Shown here: piece after piece, positions 14,507 through 55,611 of the stretch | Numbering within the stretch: the first letter of the stretch is position 1 | How the letters are laid out: the number at the start of each line of letters is the position of its first letter | Assembly (NCBI GenBank): GCA_037443945.1 | Contig: JBBINH010000001.1 | Location: 5,965-69,964, forward strand | Direction: 5' to 3' | Source: Caldilineales bacterium | GTDB taxonomy: Bacteria > Chloroflexota > Anaerolineae > J102 | Length of the DNA: 64,000 bases | Position numbers and translations under genes: made by a program | Notes under the pieces: model-generated | The model's input: only the letters and a program-made list of their open reading frames with translations | The model's database searches: none | Told to the model about the DNA's origin: nothing

Positions 14507-15636
14507 CCGATCGGGCTTCGTTTCGCATGCGTTGGTATCATCTGTTTTGGATACTGTGGCCGGTGGTCCTGTTGGGGTCGGCGGCCATGGCCCATGCGCA
14601 GGCCGATCCCAATGCTGCCTGTCTGGTCTGTCATAGCGTGCCCGGCCGTGAAGCCCTGCTCGCCAGTGGTGAACATCTGCCGCTCTACGTGAACGGCGAT
14701 GTCTACCGCCTGTCGGTGCACGGGCAAATGCAATTGCCCTGTACGGCCTGTCATACCCGCATTACGGGCTTTCCCCACGATCCGTTGCTCGCTTTCGACC
14801 GCCGCGATTATCAGCTCGACCATTACGGGGTCTGCCGGAATTGTCATCCCGAGGTCTACGAAGCCACCCTGGATTCGATGCACGCGCGGGCCCTGGCTGC
14901 CGGCCGTCGCGAAGCGGCGATTTGTACCGATTGCCACGGTGCTCATGACATCACCTCGCCCCACAGCCCGCGTCAGAAGATTTCGCTGACCTGCAGTAAG
15001 TGCCATGCCTTTATCTTCGAGCAATACAAGGAGAGCGTTCACGGCGCCGCCTTGCTCGAGGAAAGCAACCCGGATGTCCCTACCTGTGTCGATTGCCACG
15101 GCGTTCATAACATCGAGGACCCGACTACGGCGGCTTTTCGGTTGCGCTCGCCCGAAATCTGCGGGGAATGTCACCGCAACGAGGCCCTGATGAGCCAATA
15201 CGGCATCTCGACGGCGGTGTTCAATACCTATGTTGCCGATTTCCATGGGACTACCGTCACGCTGTTCCAACGTCAACACCCCGATCAGCCGACGAACAAG
15301 GCGGTTTGCTTCGATTGCCACGGCATCCATAACATCAAAGCCGTAGATGATCCGGAAGCCACGGTGGTCAAGGAGAATCTGCTGGAGACTTGTCGTAAAT
15401 GCCATCCCGATGCCGATATTAACTTTCCGGCCTCGTGGACCAGCCATTATATCCCCGACCGCAACCGCTACCCTTTGGTGTACTATGTCAATCTGTTCTA
15501 CCGGATCATCATTCCCGGTACCATCGGCTTTATGCTCGGCTTTGTTGTGTTGGATGCTTTTCGGCGTGTGTTGATGCGGACGCGTCGACAACGGGTCGTC
15601 AAACAGGCTTCCGTAGAGGCCGATCATCATGAGTGA
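14503..15636 (+). CDS. nonaheme cytochrome c with C-terminal TM anchor (CbcL/CbcA-like c domain)
   Basis: Signal peptide, 9 CxxCH, C-terminal hydrophobic helix. GTG 14503 overlaps the upstream stop; ATG 14527 is an alternative start. Confidence 0.88.
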   Translation: MTDRASFRMRWYHLFWILWPVVLLGSAAMAHAQADPNAACLVCHSVPGREALLASGEHLPLYVNGDVYRLSVHGQMQLPCTACHTRITGFPHDPLLAFDRRDYQLDHYGVCRNCHPEVYEATLDSMHARALAAGRREAAICTDCHGAHDITSPHSPRQKISLTCSKCHAFIFEQYKESVHGAALLEESNPDVPTCVDCHGVHNIEDPTTAAFRLRSPEICGECHRNEALMSQYGISTAVFNTYVADFHGTTVTLFQRQHPDQPTNKAVCFDCHGIHNIKAVDDPEATVVKENLLETCRKCHPDADINFPASWTSHYIPDRNRYPLVYYVNLFYRIIIPGTIGFMLGFVVLDAFRRVLMRTRRQRVVKQASVEADHHE

Positions 15637-16972
15637 GCAACCCCGACAGGAGTATGTCCGCTTTAGCCGGACCGACCGCATCGAGCATTTTCTGTTGATG
15701 ACATCGTTCACGGTGCTGGTGATCACCGGGCTGCCGCAGAGGTATGTCTCGGCGTCGTGGGCCGAGTTTTTGATCGAGCTGATGGGCGGCATCGAGACGG
15801 TGCGCATCATCCATCGCGTGGCGGCCATCGTGCTCATCCTCGAGAGCATCTTTCATATCATCACCGTTTCCTATAAGCTGTTCGTGCGGCGGGTCTCGCC
15901 GTCCATGTTGCCCACCTTGCAGGACTTCGTGGATTTTCTCGATGCCCTGCGCTATAACCTGGGCCTGGCCAGACGACGACCCCAGTACGACCGTTACAAT
16001 TTCGAGGAAAAAATCGAGTATTGGGCCGTCATCTGGGGCACGGCGGTGATGATCATCACCGGCTTTATGCTGTGGAACCCGATCACCACGACGAAATTTC
16101 TACCGGGTAGCTGGATCCCGGCGGCCAAGGCGGCCCATGGCGGTGAGGCTTTGCTGGCCTTCTTGGCCATTATCGTCTGGCACGTCTATAACGTCCATAT
16201 CAAGACCTTCAACCGGAGCATGTTCACCGGCAAACTCAGCCGGGAGGAGATGCTGCACGAACATCCGAAGGAGTTGGAACGCATCGAATCGGGCAGGGTA
16301 CGGCCCGAGCCGCCGCGCGAGATCATCCGTCGGCGTGAGCGGATTTTCCTTCCTATAGCCGGTCTGTTTGCCGTTTTGGCGTTGGTCGTGATGTACTTTT
16401 TTGTCACCTACGAAGAAACGGCCATTGCCACGGTACCGACCCCGGCCGAGCGAGCTGCCGTCTTTGTTCCGGCTACGCCGGTGCCAACCACCGAAGCGGA
16501 CGTGCGGCTGGCGCTTTCGCGGAGGCAGGCGCAGCCCATCCCTCATGCCATCAGCGCCGGCCGTGAGAACTGTCTGGCCTGTCATGGGCTGGGGACGCTT
16601 TCGCCTTATACGCCTATCCATGCCAATTTGCGGTTGGGCAACGAGACCTGTCTGGGATGTCATCAGCCGATGCCGGGGGCAACCGCATTACCCGACAACA
16701 TCGCCGTGCCGGGCTTCTCGACCGAGATTTTGCCCATCTTGCGGCGTCGTTGTGTGGTTTGCCATAACCCCGCCACGCCGTTGGATCTGACCAGCTATCG
16801 GAGCATCATGCGGGGAGATGGCAAAGGCCCGCTTGTGATTCCCGGCGCCGCCGGGCAGAGTCGGTTGTTGACTCTGGGCGGGCTTCCGGTGGAGGTGCAT
16901 CCCAGTCGGTTTACTCCCGAGGAAATGGCCCGCATCGGTGCCTGGATCGATGCCGGCGCTCCGGAGAACTAA
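15629..16972 (+). CDS. cytochrome b (FdnI/HyaC-type, CbcL/CbcB-like) fused to three c-type heme motifs
   Basis: RFSRTDRIEH, IIHRVAA, YNFEEKIEYWA, AHGGEALLA, WHVY b-heme domain; C-terminal CLACH, CLGCH, CVVCH. Confidence 0.88.
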   Translation: MSEQPRQEYVRFSRTDRIEHFLLMTSFTVLVITGLPQRYVSASWAEFLIELMGGIETVRIIHRVAAIVLILESIFHIITVSYKLFVRRVSPSMLPTLQDFVDFLDALRYNLGLARRRPQYDRYNFEEKIEYWAVIWGTAVMIITGFMLWNPITTTKFLPGSWIPAAKAAHGGEALLAFLAIIVWHVYNVHIKTFNRSMFTGKLSREEMLHEHPKELERIESGRVRPEPPREIIRRRERIFLPIAGLFAVLALVVMYFFVTYEETAIATVPTPAERAAVFVPATPVPTTEADVRLALSRRQAQPIPHAISAGRENCLACHGLGTLSPYTPIHANLRLGNETCLGCHQPMPGATALPDNIAVPGFSTEILPILRRRCVVCHNPATPLDLTSYRSIMRGDGKGPLVIPGAAGQSRLLTLGGLPVEVHPSRFTPEEMARIGAWIDAGAPEN

Positions 16973-16984
16973 TGAGGAGTCACG

Positions 16985-18577
16985 ATGATTCGCCGTTTTC
17001 GCCTCTGGTTTCGCCAACACTGGCAAAAGGCCCTGGGAATCGCTTTTGCCCTCACCGTCCTCGGTTTGGTTGTTTTTGTCATCGGGGTGACAGCTTGGGA
17101 GTACACGAACAGCCCTGAGTTTTGCGGTGCCACCTGTCACACCATGCCCCCGGAGTACATCGCCTATCAGCAATCGCCCCACGCCCGTGTGGCCTGTGTG
17201 GACTGTCATCTGGGGCAGGAGTCGGTGCTCTATGCTATCCCGCGTAAGGCCAGGGAGGTACGTCACGTCGTTTTTGCGCTCACCCAGGATTACGAAATCC
17301 CGATCTATGTCAAAAGCATGCGGCCGGCTCGCGACACGTGCGAGAAATGTCACGACCCGGAGAAATCCTCGCTGGACAGCGTGCGTACCATTACCCGCTA
17401 CGCTACCGATGCGACCAACACCCCGACCGTCATTCATCTGATCCTCAAAACCGGTGGCGGATCGAAACGCGAAGGCCTGGGGCGCGGCATCCACTGGCAT
17501 ACGGTCAATCAGGTTTACTTCCTGACCACCGATCCGCTCAAACAGAACATCCCCTATGTCAAAGAAGTTCGGGATGACGGTTCGGTGGTTGAGTATTTCG
17601 ATCTGGAAAGCGGCATTACACCGGCCGAGGTGGCAGCCCGCAGCAGCGAATTGCACTTGATGGATTGTATCGATTGTCACAATCGGGTTTCCCATCGCTT
17701 CGCCAAGCCCGATATCGCCGTGGACGAGGCCATCACCCGTCGTCTCATCGATGGCTCCCTTCCGCAAATCAAGCAGAAGGCGGTAGAGTTGCTCTCACAA
17801 CCGTCCGGGACGCGTGCCGAGTCGTTGGCCCAGATCGAGGCCCTGGCGGCCTGGTATGAGCAAAACTACCCCGAGGTATATGCGACCCGCCGCGAGGCCA
17901 TCGACCAAGCCATCGCCAGCCTGAAACGCATTTTCGAGTCCATTTACTTCCCCGATATGGCCGTAGGCTGGAGCACGCACCCTGACAACCTGGGCCATCT
18001 CAACTTCCCCGGCTGTTTCCGCTGCCATGACGGCAAACATACCAGTCCCGATGGGCAGACGATTCGGCTGGAGTGCAACATTTGCCATACCATTCCGCGT
18101 GTGACCGGGCCGGGCTTACCGTCCCCTGTGATCAACCTGGTGCCGGCCAACGAACCCGAATCGCACAAAGACAGCAACTGGCTGGCGCGGCATCGCTATG
18201 AGTTCGATGCCACCTGCGCCGGTTGCCATAGCACCTTTAATCGCGGCGGCAGCGATAACAGTTCCTTCTGCGCCAACAGTGCCTGTCACGGCATCCGCTG
18301 GCAATTTGCCGGGTTGGATGCACCGGGTCTGCGGGCCATTTTGCCCCCGCCTGCAACCTCAGAAGACGAAACGGCACCGACGGAGGAAGAGCAACCCGGT
18401 TTTGTACCCCTGATTCCGCATCCCCTTGGTGAGGAACGCATCGGCCAGTGCCGTACCTGCCACGGCCTGCGCGGCCTGAGGCCTTATCCCGAGTATCATG
18501 AGGAGTTTCCCCTTCAGGCCTGCACCGAATGCCACAAGCTGGCACCGATGCTACGAGGACAAACCTCGTTGCGATGA
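16985..18577 (+). CDS. NapC/NirT-family multiheme quinol dehydrogenase (ImcH-like), 10 heme motifs
   Basis: N-terminal TM, YTNSPEFCGATCH, CVDCH, CEKCH, LKTGGG..GIHWH; 8 CxxCH plus CxxxCH and CxxxxCH. Confidence 0.88.
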   Translation: MIRRFRLWFRQHWQKALGIAFALTVLGLVVFVIGVTAWEYTNSPEFCGATCHTMPPEYIAYQQSPHARVACVDCHLGQESVLYAIPRKAREVRHVVFALTQDYEIPIYVKSMRPARDTCEKCHDPEKSSLDSVRTITRYATDATNTPTVIHLILKTGGGSKREGLGRGIHWHTVNQVYFLTTDPLKQNIPYVKEVRDDGSVVEYFDLESGITPAEVAARSSELHLMDCIDCHNRVSHRFAKPDIAVDEAITRRLIDGSLPQIKQKAVELLSQPSGTRAESLAQIEALAAWYEQNYPEVYATRREAIDQAIASLKRIFESIYFPDMAVGWSTHPDNLGHLNFPGCFRCHDGKHTSPDGQTIRLECNICHTIPRVTGPGLPSPVINLVPANEPESHKDSNWLARHRYEFDATCAGCHSTFNRGGSDNSSFCANSACHGIRWQFAGLDAPGLRAILPPPATSEDETAPTEEEQPGFVPLIPHPLGEERIGQCRTCHGLRGLRPYPEYHEEFPLQACTECHKLAPMLRGQTSLR

Positions 18578-18740
18578 AGGCTGCTTTTGCAGTCGGCCGG
18601 AACAGGACAGGCCCATACCGGGCCGGGGCAACAGGGTAAGAGAACATTGGTGCCTTCGGGCCGGGCCGCGGCGAAGCGCGCCTCTGATCCTGCGGTGACT
18701 TTTGCATTTGGAAACCGGCTTGCAGTAAGCCGGCGGGGTA

Positions 18741-18758
18741 TCGTGCTAAACTTCACAA
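18741..18758 (+). promoter_or_regulatory. possible Rex (NADH/NAD+ sensor) operator
   Basis: TCGTGCT-AAAC-TTCACAA versus TTGTGAA-N4-TTCACAA (11/14); overlaps an extended -10-like TGCTAAACT. Confidence 0.35.
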
Positions 18759-18826
18759 ACAGATGGCTTGTATATACGTTGCCAAAGGATACTAAGATGA
18801 GCTCTTGATACCGACCCGGTAAAGCT

Positions 18827-18856
18827 TTGACACATTGTTCGTACACCATGTATAAT
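18827..18856 (+). promoter_or_regulatory. consensus sigma70 promoter of the Rieske/cytochrome b operon
   Basis: TTGACA (18827-18832), 18-bp spacer, TATAAT (18851-18856). Confidence 0.8.
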
Positions 18857-19020
18857 TCGCTCCTGAGTCTCGGTCGATTATGGCCGAGCACGCTCGAGAT
18901 AGATTGCAATCGATGGTCCGGTCTGTAGCGGACGTGAGACAAAAAGGCTAAAGCTTTTGCCTGTCTCACGCCCTTTTGTTTTATTCTACTTTCATCCTCT
19001 GTGGTCAAGGCGTGTAACTT

Positions 19021-19857
19021 ATGGCTGATACCGAGACGAAACCCCCTGTGACAACCGGAAAAGAAGCGTTCGTGGCATCCGCCGAGGGCCGCGTGGCCGA
19101 GCGTCGGCGCGGCGGCGATACCACCGGAGTCTCCGCCGATCGTTCGGATGGTGAAGAAGGCGGCATCAGCGAAGCAGCAAAACGTTTCCAGGCCCTGAAG
19201 CAAGGTCAGGCTTTGAAGCAAAGCCGCAAAGAGCGCGAGGCTGCCCTGTTGCGCCGGGCCGTTGATATCGCTCCACGCGTGAGTGCCGAGAGTTTACCCG
19301 AAGCCCAACCGCAAAAGGCGCCTTCGCTACCTATCAACCGCCGCGAATTCCTGACCTATGCCTGGGGCGGTGCCCTGGCCCTGGTTTTAGCGCAGGGCGG
19401 ACTGGCCACCCTGTGGTTTGCCTATCCGCGCTTTAAGGCGGGTGAATTCGGCGGTGTCTTTACCCTCACGAGTATCCCGGAGCGGGGCGCTAAACCTGTC
19501 GAGAATTTGCAGGGTAAGTTCTGGTGGACGAATGCCGAAGAAGGCGGGATAATAGCGCTGTATAAGGTCTGCACCCATCTGGGTTGTCTGTACGAGTGGA
19601 AAGACCAGACCCGTCGTTTTGAATGTCCTTGTCATGGTTCCAAGTTTAATCAATCCGGTCGCGTCATTCATGGACCGGCGGCTCGTGACTTGGATCAATT
19701 TGTCGTTACCGTCCTGGATAGCAACGGTAACCAGGTCGATCAAACCACACCCGATCACCGTTATGTTCTTGCCGGTGAAGGACTGACTTACAAGATCGAC
19801 ACCGGTCGTAAGATTCAGGGTCGGCCTGCTGACCCTGCTCTGGCTGTGGAGGCATGA
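19021..19857 (+). CDS. petC: Rieske [2Fe-2S] subunit of a Rieske/cytochrome b complex
   Basis: Tat-like NRREFL plus TM, CTHLGC and CPCHGS boxes, GPAARDL. Confidence 0.93.
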   Translation: MADTETKPPVTTGKEAFVASAEGRVAERRRGGDTTGVSADRSDGEEGGISEAAKRFQALKQGQALKQSRKEREAALLRRAVDIAPRVSAESLPEAQPQKAPSLPINRREFLTYAWGGALALVLAQGGLATLWFAYPRFKAGEFGGVFTLTSIPERGAKPVENLQGKFWWTNAEEGGIIALYKVCTHLGCLYEWKDQTRRFECPCHGSKFNQSGRVIHGPAARDLDQFVVTVLDSNGNQVDQTTPDHRYVLAGEGLTYKIDTGRKIQGRPADPALAVEA

Positions 19858-19860
19858 GTT

Positions 19861-21471
19861 ATGGTTGGTCAAGATATTCGCAGCCGTGGACTACGCGGTT
19901 ATCTCGGCGCCAAGGCCGACAGCGTCTTCGAACGCATCACGGCCGGCATTCCCTGGCGCGATTTCCGGAAGATGCTGCGCGGGGATCCCCCCGATCGTCC
20001 GAATCCACGCCTGAAACCCCATTCCGAGTCGTTTTGGCTGCATATCAAGCCCACCTACTATCACGAATCGGTCACGCACTTCACCCATACCTTTCGGTTG
20101 GGATTGCTGAGCACCTATCTGTTCGTGGTGGAGCTGATTACCGGTCTCATTTTGATGATCTGGTACGCGCCCACGCCTGAGCGGGCTTATGCGGATATGA
20201 TACGTTTGCTATCCAATGTGCCGTTTGGGCAATTGATGCGCGATATTCATCGTCTGGGCGCAGAGGCCATGGTGATCGTCGTGGTTCTGCATATGTTTCG
20301 GACCTTCTTAACCGGTTCGTACAAAAAACCGCGACAGTTCACCTGGGTGACCGGGGTGGTGCTGCTCATCGCCACGCTTTTCCTGAGCTTTTCCGGCTAT
20401 CTTCTGCCCTGGGACCAGCTGGCCTTCTGGGCCGTGACCATCGGTACGAGCATGGCCGAGGCCTCGCCGACACCGCCGGGCGCCGGCTGGATCGGCACCA
20501 TGCTGTTCGGTACTTCCGACTGGGTGGGTCAATTCGTCAACCTGTTGTTGCGTGGGGCACCCGACATCGGTGCCGGCGGGTTGCTGCGCTTCTATCTGCT
20601 CCATATCTTCTTCTTGCCGCTGGTTGTTATCTTCTTCTTCTTCTTCCACTACTACAAGGTGGTCCATTTCGGCATTTCCTTGCCGGCGAAGGAGGAAGAA
20701 GTCGGTCAGGATACGGCCAACCGGGTGCCGGCCGATAAACGGCGCTATTACCTGATGGACATCGCCATTGACGAGATAGCCCTGCTTTCGGTGGTCACTT
20801 TCGTTCTGGTAGCGATGTCTGCCTTTTTCTATGATGCCAAGTTGGAACACATTGCCAATCCCCTGAAGACACCACTGCATACGACGGCACCCTGGTATTT
20901 CTACTGGCTCCAGGGTTTGCTCAAGATCGGCAACAAAGTGTTTTGGGGCTTGATTGTGCCCGGGATCATGATTTTCCTCACCTTTGCGCTACCGTATCTC
21001 GATTACAATCCCAGTCGTCGCGGGAAGGACCGTCGTTATGCTCTGGTAGCCGGCTTTCTCTTCGCCTCTTGGATCGTGGTCCTCTCCTTCATGGGCCTGC
21101 CCCTCTATGCCGTGCAATCCCCGCCGGCCGAAGAGGTGGTTCAAGAGTTCATGCCCGAAGAAGGGGTCGGCCCCATCCGTGAGATCCCCTGGTCTGAGCT
21201 GGAAATCGGCGTGTATGACACACGGACCTTTGAAGGGAGTGTGCCCTACTCCGAGTTCGAGCAGGTTATCCTGGACTTCAAGGAGCGCATTGCCCGAGAC
21301 CCCGGTTTGCCCAACGGCAGCGGTATTATCACCGTTGAAGCGGCCGGTCCGGGTTTGAAACGAATCAAGTTCCAGATCGATTACACCGATATCGACGGGA
21401 AGCCGGCTCAGTTTATCAAGACCTTCTATCTGCACGAGAGTTCGCTCTATTGGGAGCAATTCACCTTCTGA
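19861..21471 (+). CDS. petB: cytochrome b subunit (b6 plus subunit IV fused) of a Rieske/cytochrome b complex
   Basis: Heme-b histidines in RDIHR, VLHMFR, LLHIFF, FFHYY; [14 protein letters not shown]; Qo motif APWY. Confidence 0.93.
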
Positions 21472-21486
21472 GGAGGCTCACTCCCG

Positions 21487-22617
21487 ATGTACGGTGTATC
21501 CCGTCTTGTCATTGCGACCATGGCGCTCGTGGGCACTTTTGTCGTCGTGCTGCTGACGGCGGCACAGGAACCGGCTCGCATGGAGCGCTATGCGGCCAAT
21601 TTCCACGGCCGCGAGATGGAAGTGGGTGCCCAGATTTATTTCGAGGCCTGTGCCGTCTGTCATGGTCAACACGGCGAAGGGCTGGTCGGTCCGGCCCTCA
21701 ACTCGGCCGATTTGCTGCTACCCGCGCCCGGACAAACGCGTCCTCCACGCTTGCTGGCTAAGAATTACCTGGGGGACTTGCGCAGCTATCTCGAAGGCAC
21801 TATCACCTACGGTCGGCCCGGCACGGCCATGCCTGCCTGGGGACAGGCGGCGGGCGGACCCTTCCGCCCCGATCAGATTGCCGCTGTAGCGACCTTTATC
21901 ATGAATTGGGGACTCGACCCCGGCAAACAGTGGGGCGGCGCATCCGAGCGCGTGGCCATCGGCGGCGTTGAACCGGTACTCGTGACGCCCGCCGTGTCGA
22001 TGGCAACCCCACCCCCTCGCAATGTCCGCAGTGTGGAGCTGGGTAAGTATCTCTTCAACGGCCCGGCCGGCTGTGCCGAATGCCATACCTTCGACATCGC
22101 CACCGGCAAAACCGGCCCCGACCTGACGAACATCGTCCAAACCAAGGGCCGCGATTATGTGCGCACCTCCATCGTCGACCCCAACGGCATGGTGGCACCT
22201 GACCATGCTCCGAGTGTGATGCCGCAAACCTTTGCCTTTGCTCTGACCGACATCGAGCTGGAGTCCATCATCGATTACCTGGAGAATCCGGCGGCCGCAG
22301 CCCAGGAAGCGACTCCGGCACCGGCAGCACCGCTGGACGGCAAGCAGGTAGCCCAAAGCGCCGGTTGTCTTGCCTGCCATTCGGTGGATGGCTCCGCCCT
22401 GGTCGGACCGACCTGGCAAGGTCTTTTCGGTCACGAGGTCGAGTTGGAAGATGGCAGTAAAGTGATCGCCGACGAGGCGTATTTGCGCGAATCCATCCTC
22501 AATCCTGCAGCCAAGATCGTCAAGGGTTACCAGAATCTGATGCCCGCCAACTACGAGCAACTGCTAACCCCGGAGCAGATCACGGCCATTATCGAGTACA
22601 TCAAGCTTCTGCAATAG
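21487..22617 (+). CDS. membrane-anchored triheme class I cytochrome c
   Basis: N-terminal TM; CAVCH, CAECH and CLACH each in a class I domain; last domain GPTWQGL...YLRESI..P. Confidence 0.9.
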   Translation: MYGVSRLVIATMALVGTFVVVLLTAAQEPARMERYAANFHGREMEVGAQIYFEACAVCHGQHGEGLVGPALNSADLLLPAPGQTRPPRLLAKNYLGDLRSYLEGTITYGRPGTAMPAWGQAAGGPFRPDQIAAVATFIMNWGLDPGKQWGGASERVAIGGVEPVLVTPAVSMATPPPRNVRSVELGKYLFNGPAGCAECHTFDIATGKTGPDLTNIVQTKGRDYVRTSIVDPNGMVAPDHAPSVMPQTFAFALTDIELESIIDYLENPAAAAQEATPAPAAPLDGKQVAQSAGCLACHSVDGSALVGPTWQGLFGHEVELEDGSKVIADEAYLRESILNPAAKIVKGYQNLMPANYEQLLTPEQITAIIEYIKLLQ

Positions 22618-22644
22618 GGTACGAGCCCTTGCCGCCTCTCCGCA

Positions 22645-22679
22645 GCCGCCTATCCGTTCCGGATGGGCGGCTTTTTTTT
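22645..22679 (+). terminator. rho-independent terminator
   Basis: GCCGCCTATCCG-TTC-CGGATGGGCGGC followed by 8 T. Confidence 0.9.
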
Positions 22680-22790: not shown

Positions 22791-22961
22791 CCGAAGTTGA
22801 CGCCGATGTGAAACGACCGGGCAACGCTTGCTGTTGCCGTCCTTAGCCGGTTTGTATCCAATCGCTCTCCCTGAACCATGGGCAAGACGACGCCGCAACC
22901 GTGGCTTCAAAGCAGTTCGGGGGTTGCGGCGTCGGTATATCTGCTTGTGGGGTGAGCGGAC

Positions 22962-23876
22962 TTATCTCGTTGTCTTCAGAAGATAGTCATAAGCCGCCAG
23001 AGCGGCTTTGGCGCCGTCGCCGATGGCGATGAGGACTTGTTCGCCGAAGCTGTCCGTCACATCGCCGGCAGCGAAAATGCCGGGACGCGAGGTGCGGCAA
23101 CAACCATCCACCTTCACATAGCCCTCCGGGTTGAGATCGACCAGATCGCGTACCAGGTCGGATTGGGGTTTTAGACCCAATTCGCCGAAAACGCCCGTAA
23201 CGGGGATATCCTGCTCGTGTCCGTGGGGATCGCGGATGGTGATACCGGTGACATAGCCATCCATGTGAATGCGCACGAGCTGATGGTTTTCCAGAATGGT
23301 GACGTTGGCCATCTGGCTGAGCTTGTCTCTCAGCGGTGCGTCCACCAGCCCTTCAGGGGCAATGAGCACCACCCGACGGGCGATGGTCGCCAGCTCGGCG
23401 GCCGAACGCAGCGCCAGCTCCGTGTTGCCTATCACCGCCGTTTCGCGTCCCCAGAACAAAGGCGCATGGCTGATGGCCGAATAGCTCAACCCGCGCCCCA
23501 GGGCCTGGGTCTCGTTCGGCACATGCAATCGTCGCGGTTCGGCGCCGGTGGCCAGGATGATGCTGCGGCTTGTTAGGGTTTTGCCACTCTCGGTGGTGAC
23601 GACGAACGTTTCCGGCTGACCGGGCTTAACATCCAGGTGGGTGACCCGATCGCGCAAATAGGCAAAATCGAGATATTGGATCTCGCTGCGGAACTTGCGC
23701 ACCACTTCTTCACCGGTAATGTGCTCATAGCCTTCCAATCCGGCCAGATGAACGCGATAGTTGGCCTTGCCCCCTAATTCGGGCGAGATCAACAGCATCT
23801 CCAGGCGTTTGCGCATGCAGTAGGCGGCAGCCGTAAGGCCGGCCGGTCCACCGCCGATGATGATCACATCGTACAT
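22962..23876 (-). CDS. thioredoxin-reductase-like (TrxB/AhpF-C) flavoprotein lacking the CxxC motif
   Basis: MYDVIIIGGGPAG FAD motif, ILATGA, GIFAAGDV; SYSAISH at the position of SYCxxC. Confidence 0.85.
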   Translation of the reverse strand: MYDVIIIGGGPAGLTAAAYCMRKRLEMLLISPELGGKANYRVHLAGLEGYEHITGEEVVRKFRSEIQYLDFAYLRDRVTHLDVKPGQPETFVVTTESGKTLTSRSIILATGAEPRRLHVPNETQALGRGLSYSAISHAPLFWGRETAVIGNTELALRSAAELATIARRVVLIAPEGLVDAPLRDKLSQMANVTILENHQLVRIHMDGYVTGITIRDPHGHEQDIPVTGVFGELGLKPQSDLVRDLVDLNPEGYVKVDGCCRTSRPGIFAAGDVTDSFGEQVLIAIGDGAKAALAAYDYLLKTTR

Positions 23877-23917
23877 GGCTTGTAACTCCCTCCATAGATA
23901 GGGATAGAGCAACGGCT

Positions 23918-25318
23918 CTAGAGGACAGGCGGCGCCGGAATGAAGCCCTGACGCATCATCCACCGGGTCAATTCGCGGGCTTGGGCGATGGTGTCGCTGG
24001 CCTGACGATAGAGGTCTGCGGCCGTGAGGCTCAGCCGCGCCAGCTTTTGTTCTTGGGCTTTCATGCCCACGGCCACCGCCTCGCGGGGGAAGACCTCCCA
24101 ATCATCCATGGTGGGTAGGATGTGATCTTCGTCCAGCCCGCGCTCCAGGGCCATATCGGCCAGGGCCTGCGCGGCGGCAATGCACATTTCGTCGCTGATG
24201 GTGCGTGCACGCACATCGAGCGCCCCGCGAAAGATGCCTGGGAAACCGAGGGAGTTGTTCACCTGATTGGGAAAATCGGAGCGCCCGGTGGCGAAGATGC
24301 GCACACCGGCTGCTTTCGCTTCCCACGGCCACATCTCCGGGACGGGATTGGCCATGGCGAAGACAATGGCATCGTCTGCCATTTCTTTGACCCATTCCGA
24401 TTTCAGCGTCCCCGGACCCGGCGTACTCAGGGCAATGCAGATGTCGGCGCCTTTCAGCGCTTCGGCGATGCCGCCCGTCCGTCCCTCCTTATTGGTGATA
24501 TTCGCTATGCGCCACTTCTCGGCGAACTCCAGCTTTCGCGCCTGTAAGTCCGGGCGATCGGGATGGAGGATGCCGCGACTGTCCACGGCGATGCAATTTT
24601 CGGGTTGGGCTCCGGCCGCAAAGAGCAGACGAGCGCAGGCCACATTGGAGGCGCCGAAACCCTGAAACACGATGCGCACCTGCTCGATGGGTTTGCCGAC
24701 GATGCGCAGCGCGTTGATGACCGCAGCCAGGGTGACCGTGGCCGTGCCTTGCTGATCGTCGTGCCAGACCGGGATCTCGGCCTGTTCGCGCAGGGTGTCG
24801 AGAATACGGAAGCACTTCGGTTGGGAGAGGTCCTCCAGGTTGATGCCGCCGAAGCTCGGCTGCAGCCACAACACCGCCTGGATGATCTCGTCGGGATTTT
24901 TGGTGCCTAGACAAATCGGCACCGTGTCTACTCCGCCCAGGTACTTGAACAGCAATGCCTTGCCCTCCATCACCGGTAAGGCCGCTTTGGGGCCGATATC
25001 GCCCAGACCCAACACGCGGGTGCCGTCAGAGACAACGGCGACGAGATTCCCCTTGTTGGTGTGTTCGTAGACTTGATCGGGGTCGGCATGAATGGCCTTA
25101 CAAGGCGCCGCCACACCGGGTGTGTACCAGATGGCAAAATCGTTGAAATCACGGACGGCGCATTTGGGTACCACCTGGATTTTACCCTTGTAGAACGGAT
25201 GGAGAGTCATGGCATCGGCCGACGGCTTCTGGGCTCGCGCAACCAGGGCCTGGACATCGTCGGCTGTCGGCGTCGCCGGCTCTGCGGTTGTGATGTCATG
25301 GGCAATGCCTGTGGTCAT
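23918..25318 (-). CDS. NAD(P)-dependent malic enzyme
   Basis: YTPGVA, VSDGTRVLGLG, GINLED, WHDDQQGTA, ANPVPE, PNQVNNSLGFPG; RBS GAGGAGG upstream of ATG 25318. Confidence 0.93.
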   Translation of the reverse strand: MTTGIAHDITTAEPATPTADDVQALVARAQKPSADAMTLHPFYKGKIQVVPKCAVRDFNDFAIWYTPGVAAPCKAIHADPDQVYEHTNKGNLVAVVSDGTRVLGLGDIGPKAALPVMEGKALLFKYLGGVDTVPICLGTKNPDEIIQAVLWLQPSFGGINLEDLSQPKCFRILDTLREQAEIPVWHDDQQGTATVTLAAVINALRIVGKPIEQVRIVFQGFGASNVACARLLFAAGAQPENCIAVDSRGILHPDRPDLQARKLEFAEKWRIANITNKEGRTGGIAEALKGADICIALSTPGPGTLKSEWVKEMADDAIVFAMANPVPEMWPWEAKAAGVRIFATGRSDFPNQVNNSLGFPGIFRGALDVRARTISDEMCIAAAQALADMALERGLDEDHILPTMDDWEVFPREAVAVGMKAQEQKLARLSLTAADLYRQASDTIAQARELTRWMMRQGFIPAPPVL

Positions 25319-54135: not shown

Positions 54136-54237
54136 GACTCGGTCCTCTCTTTTGTTGGTGAGAACGTTTGAACGTTAGAACGTTTGAACGTTATGCCTGC
54201 CTGCCCCTCTTGCGCCAACACACTCCGGAACCGAGTC
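54136..54237 (+). mobile_element. MITE-like element, copy A (102 bp)
   Basis: Ends GACTCGGTCC / GGAACCGAGTC, flanked by direct repeat CAACGATT (54128-54135, 54238-54245); one more 8-bp internal repeat unit than copy B. Confidence 0.85.
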
Positions 54238-54244
54238 CAACGAT

Positions 54245-54273
54245 TTGACAATGGCCGGCGCTTCTGTTACATT
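54245..54273 (+). promoter_or_regulatory. sigma70 promoter of the cobalamin operon
   Basis: TTGACA (54245-50)-N17-TACATT (54268-73) with a TGn extension. Confidence 0.75.
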
Positions 54274-54298
54274 TCCGACGCTCAACCGATATCTCCCG

Positions 54299-54420
54299 TT
54301 GGCGACTTACATCGCTCCGACGATGGCCGGGGAAGTCCGGTGCGGCCCATCAAGCCAAGGCCGGCGCTGTCCCGCAACTGTAAGGGCTTCGGCCCAAGCC
54401 ACGATACCCGGTGTCGCCAA
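54299..54420 (+). promoter_or_regulatory. cobalamin (B12) riboswitch aptamer
   Basis: GGGAAGTCCGGTG, CCGGCGCTGTCCCGCAACTGTAA, AAGCCACGATACC; closing helix TTGGCGAC/GTCGCCAA. Confidence 0.92.
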
Positions 54421-54472
54421 CGCCACCACCTGCGCGGACAGGCTCGGTGGTTGCAAGGCCTGCAGTCCATGC

Positions 54473-54502
54473 AACCCTCGCCGCCGACGGTGAGGGTTTT
54501 TT
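54473..54502 (+). terminator. riboswitch expression-platform terminator
   Basis: AACCCTCGCCG-CCGA-CGGTGAGGGTT plus T tract; GGTTGC (54449-54) can sequester the 5' arm as an antiterminator. Confidence 0.8.
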
Positions 54503-54549
54503 GTGCCTTCCCCGCCGCATCCTGTCTCGCACGTTCTCCGGAGGCTCCG

Positions 54550-55611
54550 ATGCGGCGATTTGTTTTTCGCTTTCTCCTGTTCCTTTGGCTCCTCAGTTTC
54601 GGTGCAGCGGTCCGTGCCGATGCCGACAGCAGTCTGCCGGTGCGGCGGAACGCCGTCGAGGCGGCCGTTGCCTGGCTACGAACCCTACAGCGACCCGATG
54701 GCAGCGTGGGATCGTTGGGCACCTCGTGCGATGTGGCCTGGCTGGTGGCCCTGGCCGGCCAGAATCCCGATGGACCGGAATGGACGCCGGGCAGCCGTAG
54801 CCTGATGGCGGCCTGTGCCGACGAAGCGCCGACCTTTCTCGCCCGCCGGGATGTCGGTCGCCTGGCCAAGGTCCTGCGCGCCGTGGTGGCGGCGCGGGCG
54901 GTGGGCGCCAACCGCTTTGACCCCCGCGCCTTTGCCGGTATCGACCTGACCGCCGAATTGGAGGCCCGCTACAACCCGGCCACCGGTCTCTACGATGCCA
55001 ACTTCTTCTTCCGCCACTGTCTGGCCGTCCTGGCCCTGGTCGAGGCCGGTCGCCCTCTCCCTCCGGGTGTTGTGAACGGCATCCTGGCCCAACAACGCCC
55101 CGACGGAAGCTGGGGTTGGGCTGTGGACCCCGATCCGAGCGATGGATTCGCCACGCCGGGCGATATTGACACCACCGGTCGCAGCCTGCAAGCCCTGCGC
55201 CGCGCCGGCTTGCCCCTCTACCACCCGGCCTATACCCGGGCGTTGACCTATATCCAAAACCGACAGCATGAGGATGGCGGCTGGGGCCTTATGGACGGTC
55301 CTACGAACACCAACTCGACCGCCGTGGCCGTCGACACCATCATCGCGGCCGGCTGGGACCCGGAGGGGCCGCGCTTCCTTCGCCACGGCAGGACCCCGGT
55401 TGCGGTGCTCCTGAGCATGCAAGAGGCGAGTGGCGCCTTCATCTATCGGCCCGGTGCCGAAGAAAGTCGCCTGTTGGCCACTTATGATGCCATCCCGGCC
55501 CTACTTCAGCCTTATCCCGGCGATGATGAGCTGCCCTTGCGGCTCTATACGCCTCTCATGCGTCTCTCCCATTCCCCCTCTTCCGTGTTCTCCGCAGGAG
55601 GTATCCCATGA
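54550..55611 (+). CDS. secreted prenyltransferase/squalene-cyclase-repeat alpha-barrel protein (transcobalamin alpha-domain-like)
   Basis: Signal peptide MRRFVFRFLL..AVRA; QW-type repeats LQRPDGS, QQRPDGSWG, RQHEDGGWG, MQEASGAF. Confidence 0.8.
   Translation: MRRFVFRFLLFLWLLSFGAAVRADADSSLPVRRNAVEAAVAWLRTLQRPDGSVGSLGTSCDVAWLVALAGQNPDGPEWTPGSRSLMAACADEAPTFLARRDVGRLAKVLRAVVAARAVGANRFDPRAFAGIDLTAELEARYNPATGLYDANFFFRHCLAVLALVEAGRPLPPGVVNGILAQQRPDGSWGWAVDPDPSDGFATPGDIDTTGRSLQALRRAGLPLYHPAYTRALTYIQNRQHEDGGWGLMDGPTNTNSTAVAVDTIIAAGWDPEGPRFLRHGRTPVAVLLSMQEASGAFIYRPGAEESRLLATYDAIPALLQPYPGDDELPLRLYTPLMRLSHSPSSVFSAGGIP

Follow-up and report, generated by a model that had tools for sequence, protein, structure and literature searches.

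The genome of a Caldilineales bacterium encodes a flavoprotein of the thioredoxin reductase (TrxR) fold that has lost both the redox-active dithiol and the canonical NAD(P)H-binding motif of its parent enzymes, and this protein belongs to a conserved, monophyletic, Cys-less family that is derived from the TrxR/AhpF C-terminal module. Because the gene is inherited in most of the lineages examined as a two-gene unit together with a malic-enzyme gene, we consider its product an uncharacterised redox protein and not a decayed TrxR. As to its function, we think that it probably is an FAD-only, thiol-independent redox module that has no canonical pyridine-nucleotide binding and works with malic enzyme. 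Throughout the text, TRL designates the Cys-less TrxR/AhpF-fold flavoprotein, the window is the whole stretch of 64,000 nucleotides that was analysed, and L and P numbers stand for loci and proteins, respectively.

The TRL gene and its sequence motifs

The TRL gene occupies positions 22962..23876 on the minus strand of the window, and translation of its open reading frame gives a protein of 304 amino acids. A Shine-Dalgarno-like stretch, GGAGGGAG, can be read from the sequence at 23886..23893 (minus strand), 10-17 nt upstream of the TRL ATG. About 27 nt after the stop codon follows a 13-bp GC-rich hairpin (22888..22934, minus strand) with a fold energy of -40.3 kcal/mol (z -3.9 versus shuffles) and no U-run after it, which is possibly the 3' end of the transcript of malic enzyme and TRL and may act as a terminator.

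Both FAD motifs are intact, as the preliminary description of this gene had stated. The dinucleotide motif GGGPAG comprises residues 8-13 (23838..23855, minus strand), and its G8, G10, P11, A12 and G13 are each at least 90% conserved in an 81-member family alignment. The C-terminal FAD (GD) motif GIFAAGD comprises residues 266-272 (23061..23081, minus strand), and here A270, G271 and D272 are invariant across the same alignment. At the place of the C-x-x-C-D redox centre, TRL carries S133-x-x-S136-H137 as part of the stretch GRGLSYSAISH (residues 127-137). Translation and a HMMER alignment with AhpF (1fl2, 4o5q, 1hyu), in which S133 and S136 fall onto the Cys-Pro-His-Cys of AhpF and H137 onto the next Asp, bear out the earlier reading that both cysteines are replaced by serine; the motif as such was right, but its span had been given a few bases off as 23461-23490 and is in fact 23466..23498 (minus strand). 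The second dinucleotide motif, GGGxxA in TrxR, is degenerate and reads VIGNTELA (residues 148-155; 23412..23435, minus strand), again as originally recognised, with GNTELA (G150-A155) aligned by HMMER onto the GGGNSG of AhpF. The position of the TrxR motif HRRxxxR is occupied by L-I-A-P-E-G-L-V-D in the window TRL, and no HRRxxxR is present.

A vicinal cysteine pair in VDGCCRTS (residues 256-263; 23088..23111, minus strand) had also been pointed out. It is present in the window TRL but has no conserved role, being found in two of 122 close homologues. As, in addition, Cys does not exceed 31% at any column of the 81-member alignment, the pair is ruled out as a new redox site.

Conservation of the Cys-less state

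The best 120 matches to TRL in a collection of 5.8 billion proteins are 52-93% identical to it, and all of them carry S-Y-S-x-x-S-[H/Y]-A or a near variant, whereas CxxC, the retention of which in close homologues would have pointed to isolated decay, occurs in none of the 120. The named organisms among these matches are Caldilineales, Anaerolineae and Promineifilaceae. An exhaustive search of a library of 50%-identity representatives was used to build a tree, in which the 54 Cys-less representatives group together as a single clade (local support 99%). The window TRL falls within this clade, and the sister group consists of proteins with CxxC and GGGNS[AG]. The loss of the dithiol as well as of the canonical NAD(P)H motif, noted at first for the single gene, is therefore a conserved trait, with Ser at the first Cys position in 120 of 120 matches and in the 54-representative clade. 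The conservation of the S-x-x-S pattern in particular, which the preliminary description had left to be checked, is clear from the 81-sequence alignment: S133 is found in all 81 family members, S or T at position 136 in 78, H or Y at position 137 in 77 and Y132 likewise in 77, and ten of the 81 contain no Cys whatever. All named family members are Chloroflexota, save one metagenome-assembled genome labelled Bathyarchaeia.

TRL is under strong purifying selection, with a dN/dS (Nei-Gojobori, between related genomes) of 0.05-0.11, and the adjacent malic enzyme gives a similar value of 0.04-0.07. Since the Cys-less state is common to a deep clade and since dN/dS is that low, TRL is not a case of isolated decay.

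Compared with the CxxC sisters, the family has not only lost both cysteines but also exchanged the catalytic Asp for His or Tyr at position 137. Position 279, a Lys or Arg in the sisters, is Glu in 94% of the family, and position 37 in the GGQ loop has changed from Gln to Lys. The V-E-N-Y-P-G loop no longer has its conserved Asn, and there are two small insertions, one of four residues at 40-43 and one of two residues at 173-174. The resulting family signature combines K37 and E279-Q280 with Y-S-x-x-[S/T]-[H/Y] in place of the redox centre, and the window TRL carries it completely (Y132, S133, S136, H137, K37, E279, Q280). Where the active site used to be, S133, Y132, E279 and Q280 are almost invariant, and a selected function at this site is likely.

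The situation at the second dinucleotide motif is less uniform. Its middle Gly (the G152 position) is kept in 44-47% of the family (38/81), compared with 92% of the CxxC sisters, and it is replaced by Thr in the window TRL and by Glu in the f2 genomes (VIGDEDLA). G150 and A155 are still conserved, a pattern that fits a kept beta-alpha-beta scaffold without a constrained pyrophosphate contact. As a formal G-x-G-x-x-A is still present in 38 of 81 members, the NAD(P)H motif was not deleted uniformly but came under relaxed constraint throughout the family, and some of these 38 may still bind a dinucleotide. Judged from the aligned sequences, neither the Gly in the second Rossmann motif that contacts the pyrophosphate nor the HRRxxxR motif for the 2'-phosphate is constrained any longer in the family, and canonical NAD(P)H binding by the window TRL appears unlikely.

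Fold and relationship to known enzymes

TRL keeps the two-domain fold and all FAD-binding motifs. Pfam Pyr_redox_2 matches residues 2-287 (E 1.5e-31), and both this match and the AF2 model (pLDDT 95.4) identify the two-domain FAD/NADPH fold of the TrxB type (~310 aa). In the model, the last helix reaches residue 302 of 304 and there is no C-terminal tail. From its motifs, TRL likely binds FAD. No curated family model claims the protein, and it stays below the NCBIfam equivalog thresholds of both best models: with TIGR01292 (thioredoxin-disulfide reductase) TRL scores 228.6 bits, below the equivalog cut-off of 343.45, and with TIGR03140 (AhpF) it scores 219 bits, below the cut-off of 503, with only profile positions 213-514 matched. 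Among solved structures, TRL comes closest to the catalytic core of AhpF (1fl2, E 7e-48) and to mycobacterial TrxRs. Foldseek comparison of the TRL model gives a TM of 0.90 to AhpF and of about 0.87 to flavin-oxidising (FO) TrxR structures, and the model fits the non-FR TrxR/AhpF forms best, with TM 0.87-0.90 versus 0.65 for the flavin-reducing (FR) structure from L. lactis. By homology, the S-x-x-S-H helix would be placed against the flavin.

The C-terminal module of AhpF from E. coli and S. typhimurium (1fl2, 4o5q, 4xvg, 1hyu) is thus the best match to TRL, at 34-35% identity. Common to both are the two-domain FAD/NAD fold, a tyrosine before the first redox position, an A-P-E stretch after strand beta-2 and the C-terminal helix GxGAKAxLxAxDYL. 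AhpF, however, has an N-terminal double thioredoxin-fold domain with its own CxxC, which is absent from the 304 residues of TRL, and where AhpF has CPHCD and GGGNSG, TRL has SAISH and GNTELA, such that the C-terminal CxxC and the NADH site of AhpF are both missing. No AhpC gene adjoins TRL. TrxB (TIGR01292) resembles TRL in length, fold and FAD motifs, and solved TrxRs are 31-36% identical to it, but the CxxC-Asp, GGGxxA and HRRxxxR of TrxB all have no counterpart in TRL.

The TrxR fold has been re-used in other enzymes by dropping one module, which is the disulfide in the FNRs and the NADPH site in FFTR. Like TRL, the YumC/TRLF-type FNRs (3lzw, 2zbw, 5twb) possess a TrxR fold without redox disulfide, but they keep GGGxSA and an HR-type NADPH motif, which TRL does not, and they have a C-terminal aromatic extension that stacks on the flavin, whereas TRL ends without a tail. 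They are also much more distant from TRL, with E-values of 1e-12 to 1e-20. In the group of FFTR, DTR and DDOR (6gna-d, 5j60), the TrxR fold does not use NADPH, and in FFTR the flavin is reduced by ferredoxin instead (PMC8154056). TRL likewise has no NADPH motif, but the members of this group keep CxxC and reduce thioredoxin, whereas TRL has no CxxC. A C-terminal aromatic tail in the cyanobacterial FFTR/DTR forms is a further difference, and the whole group gives weak matches to TRL (E about 1e-18; TM 0.50 to 5j60).

The host assembly (3.6 Mb, 98% complete) encodes a canonical TrxB elsewhere in the genome (L002, with CATC, GGGDSA and HRRDTLR), as well as a YumC-type FNR (L004, with GGGDTA and VHRF), and TRL is therefore not the housekeeping enzyme. 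The same genome also contains a 427-aa protein (L003; C17:8796-9701) in which an N-terminal thioredoxin/glutaredoxin-like CPDC domain is fused to a CATC TrxR, the TrxR part having GGGNSG and no HRR motif, and an 816-aa open frame (L005, on contig C8) in which an FprA-like reductase is fused to a YumC-like FNR.

Pairing with malic enzyme

Immediately upstream of TRL and on the same strand lies a malic-enzyme gene (23918..25318, minus strand; 466 aa; Pfam malic and Malic_M). The location of TRL downstream of malic enzyme had been described correctly, but the malic-enzyme gene ends 41 nt before the TRL ATG and not 42. The enzyme is of the 3NV9 type, 3nv9 being its best solved relative (E 1e-142). 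The possibility that its GFGASN marks an aberrant malic enzyme is ruled out, as 3nv9 has G-x-G-x-S-N as well and the enzyme closely resembles 3nv9 and 1ww8 in the aligned stretches.

The order of malic enzyme followed by TRL on the same strand is found in the window and at L044, L024-L032 (nine genomes of the phylum sample), L124, L125, L128/129, L041, L042, L153 and L157. The intergenic gaps range from a 1-nt overlap to 311 nt, and at L125 the start and stop codons overlap. The divergent members P0124, P0125, P0139, P0291, P0278, P0303 and P0293 have the pair on their metagenomic contigs, and the adjacency covers seven distinct 50%-identity TRL clusters (the window/L044 lineage included) that span the basal splits of the tree. 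Linkage was counted in a sample of 301 Chloroflexota genomes, 15 of which have a TRL family member and 25 a 3NV9-type malic enzyme; ten have both genes, and these are adjacent in ten of ten cases. Malic enzyme occurs without TRL in 15 of its 25 genomes, and TRL without a 3NV9-type malic enzyme in 5 of 15. The loci L037-L039 (35-38% identity) are CxxC TrxRs and were left out of these counts. A search for related loci that started from TRL alone yielded L044 as the sole family member, since its patterns covered mostly the N-terminal FAD motif and drew generic CxxC TrxRs. The TRLs without a malic-enzyme link (P0164, P0145/P0313, P0157, P0176, L034-L036, L040) belong mostly to one subclade of 22 representatives, in which the link has been lost. 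From these unlinked TRLs and from the 15 of 25 malic-enzyme genomes without TRL it follows that the pairing is not a requirement for the enzyme and does not extend to the whole family, and as the enzyme also occurs alone, it does not need TRL.

Paired and solitary malic enzymes are interleaved on the enzyme tree and have the same N- and C-terminal extensions, and neither in the tree nor in the sequences could a tail or clade be found that sets the paired enzymes apart. Co-fold prediction of malic enzyme and TRL (with alignments) gave a score of 0.05, the mark being 0.32, a value that speaks neither for nor against a complex. A search with residues 110-200 found no fused TRL longer than 533 aa, which is weak evidence. 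The only fusion seen is P0180, a metagenomic protein of 439 aa with S-Y-S-A-I-S-H-A and an N-terminal response-regulator receiver domain, and it suggests that the Cys-less module can be the output of two-component signalling.

At two loci the malic-enzyme gene is interrupted and TRL is intact (L124, 5548-6913; L029 on G193 C11). One of these genes is broken into two pieces of 355 and 114 aa, the other contains a single in-frame TAA, and either sequencing errors or genuine decay of the partner gene may be the cause. One member of the L153/L157 cluster (P0303/P0293) with the malic enzyme-TRL pair has been deposited as Candidatus Bathyarchaeia, which reflects either lateral transfer into an archaeal genome or wrong binning; genes for a 6-phosphogluconate dehydrogenase and a Vgb-lyase-like protein are on the contig with this label as well.

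Genomic surroundings of the pair

In the window, the pair is flanked by a cluster of Rieske, cytochrome b and cytochrome c genes on one side and by a biotin carboxylase gene on the other. At L024-L030 and L124 it is found within a Wood-Ljungdahl methyl-branch cluster (AcsC, RACo, AcsE, MetV-MetF), and in the host genome the genes for MetVF and CFeSP are located on another contig (C37) than the pair. Other neighbours are PEPCK (L128) and two acyl/acetyl-CoA synthetases with an acetate channel (L153). At L125 the pair is surrounded by succinate dehydrogenase and a flavodoxin-like gene, and at L044, L025 and L032 by unrelated genes. Since the surroundings vary in this way and since MetVF is on another contig, the conserved unit is that of malic enzyme and TRL and not that of TRL and MetVF, and in most lineages the pair moves between genomic contexts as one block.

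Some further features of these regions should be mentioned. A row of respiratory genes on the plus strand of the window (15629-22617) converges on the TRL gene and encodes a cytochrome b561-like protein, a multihaem cytochrome of the NapC/NirT type (530 aa), a Rieske protein (278 aa), a long fused cytochrome b (536 aa) that has the N- and C-terminal b domains and an extension, and a cytochrome c with several domains (376 aa); by this row, at 22644-22672, there is a strong 13-bp terminator hairpin with a T-run. A cobalamin riboswitch (RF00174; 54289-54429, plus strand; 48.5 bits, E 5e-9) lies upstream of an ORF at ~54184-55611. In several Wood-Ljungdahl clusters of the Anaerolineae type, a gene for a Cys-rich protein of 92-114 aa (C-H-A-C-N-D-C-D) without Pfam match sits between MetV-MetF and malic enzyme (L028, 8354-8632, minus strand; L024; L029).

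Function of TRL and alternative explanations

TRL should be unable to carry out dithiol-disulfide exchange, and as neither a dithiol nor a canonical NAD(P)H pocket is available, its flavin would be served by another donor or acceptor. In the reading that we favour, the FAD would be reduced and re-oxidised by something other than NAD(P)H in the canonical pocket, and the redox partner would be either a small molecule or a protein such as a ferredoxin or flavodoxin, FFTR being the closest precedent for a flavin in this fold that receives its electrons from a protein and not from NADPH. The exchange would take place at a remodelled flavin site that is lined by Ser133, Tyr132, His/Tyr137, Lys37 and Glu279, and TRL would serve as an accessory redox module for the flux through malic enzyme, which converts malate to or from pyruvate and CO2 with NAD(P)H. 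The idea of a partner subunit, put forward in the preliminary description, receives indirect support from the conserved co-linearity with malic enzyme. At the loci examined, TRL has no constant ferredoxin or flavodoxin neighbour, and a flavodoxin-like gene adjoins it in one cluster only (L125, L126, L043).

The alternative that survives best is a TrxR-type ferredoxin/flavodoxin:NAD(P)+ oxidoreductase, YumC-like with a modified pocket, which would exchange the NAD(P)H of malic enzyme with ferredoxin or flavodoxin. It agrees with the absence of CxxC, as in the TrxR-like FNRs, with the G-x-G-x-x-A that about half of the family (38/81) still keeps and with the flavodoxin-like gene next to the pair in the cluster just named, and in metabolic terms it would be sensible to have an FNR next to an NAD(P)-linked decarboxylase. 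However, the Thr (window) or Glu (f2) in place of the middle Gly should block and repel the pyrophosphate, and TRL has neither an HRR-type motif nor a C-terminal aromatic tail. It also branches with AhpF/TrxR and not with the YumC-type FNRs, the PDB E-values being 1e-48 for AhpF as opposed to 1e-12 to 1e-19 for FNRs, and a canonical YumC-type FNR (L004) is already encoded in the genome. We therefore regard this explanation as unlikely.

The loss of both catalytic features of the parent enzymes and the conserved gene order with malic enzyme would also agree with a non-catalytic pseudoenzyme that acts on malic enzyme or another target as a structural or regulatory subunit, perhaps as a redox sensor based on its flavin, and the receiver-domain fusion in P0180 indicates that the module can be wired into signalling. 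Yet the FAD motifs as well as S133, Y132, E279 and Q280 are almost invariant, which suggests a selected flavin chemistry, and the paired malic enzymes, interleaved on the tree with solitary ones, have no distinguishing feature. A TRL without catalysis is thus rather improbable. We are still more doubtful that malic enzyme and TRL form one enzyme, which would pass reducing equivalents via FAD to or from ferredoxin, flavodoxin or quinone. Such a complex would be a malate:ferredoxin/flavodoxin oxidoreductase (decarboxylating), the equivalents coming from malate decarboxylation or being spent on pyruvate carboxylation, and if this were true, it would tie C3/C4 metabolism directly to low-potential carriers in Chloroflexota that use the Wood-Ljungdahl pathway.

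It is very improbable that TRL is the subunit that feeds electrons into MetV-MetF, the methylene-tetrahydrofolate reductase of the Wood-Ljungdahl pathway. In Anaerolineae-type genomes the pair does lie in the methyl-branch cluster, with TRL directly before or after MetVF, but the constant neighbour of TRL is malic enzyme and not MetVF, the pair is found beside PEPCK at L128, beside acetyl-CoA synthetases at L153 and without any of these genes at L044 and L125, and the host has its MetVF and CFeSP apart from the pair on contig C37. That TRL is a recently decayed TrxR or AhpF gene without function, as the loss of two hallmark motifs in the sequence alone would suggest, is refuted by the deep Cys-less clade, by the dN/dS of 0.05-0.11 and by the intact frame with its own ribosome-binding site.

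Implications for the family and its hosts

Literature searches returned no description of a Cys-less, NADPH-less TrxR-like family, nor of its link to malic enzyme. The fold and the superfamily are known; new are the uncharacterised family that has neither canonical module and its specific, conserved partner gene. Proteins of this family are currently labelled as thioredoxin reductase, as AhpF or as "NAD(P)/FAD-dependent oxidoreductase", and none of these labels is strictly right. As a probable redox module for malic enzyme, TRL offers a testable handle in its steady pairing, because both proteins are soluble and can be co-expressed. The pairing is often found inside the acetyl-CoA-pathway clusters of abundant uncultured Chloroflexota, and the existence of a large, selected family that has given up both TrxR modules and kept the flavin motifs indicates that the TrxR fold supports a third chemistry or a third set of partners.
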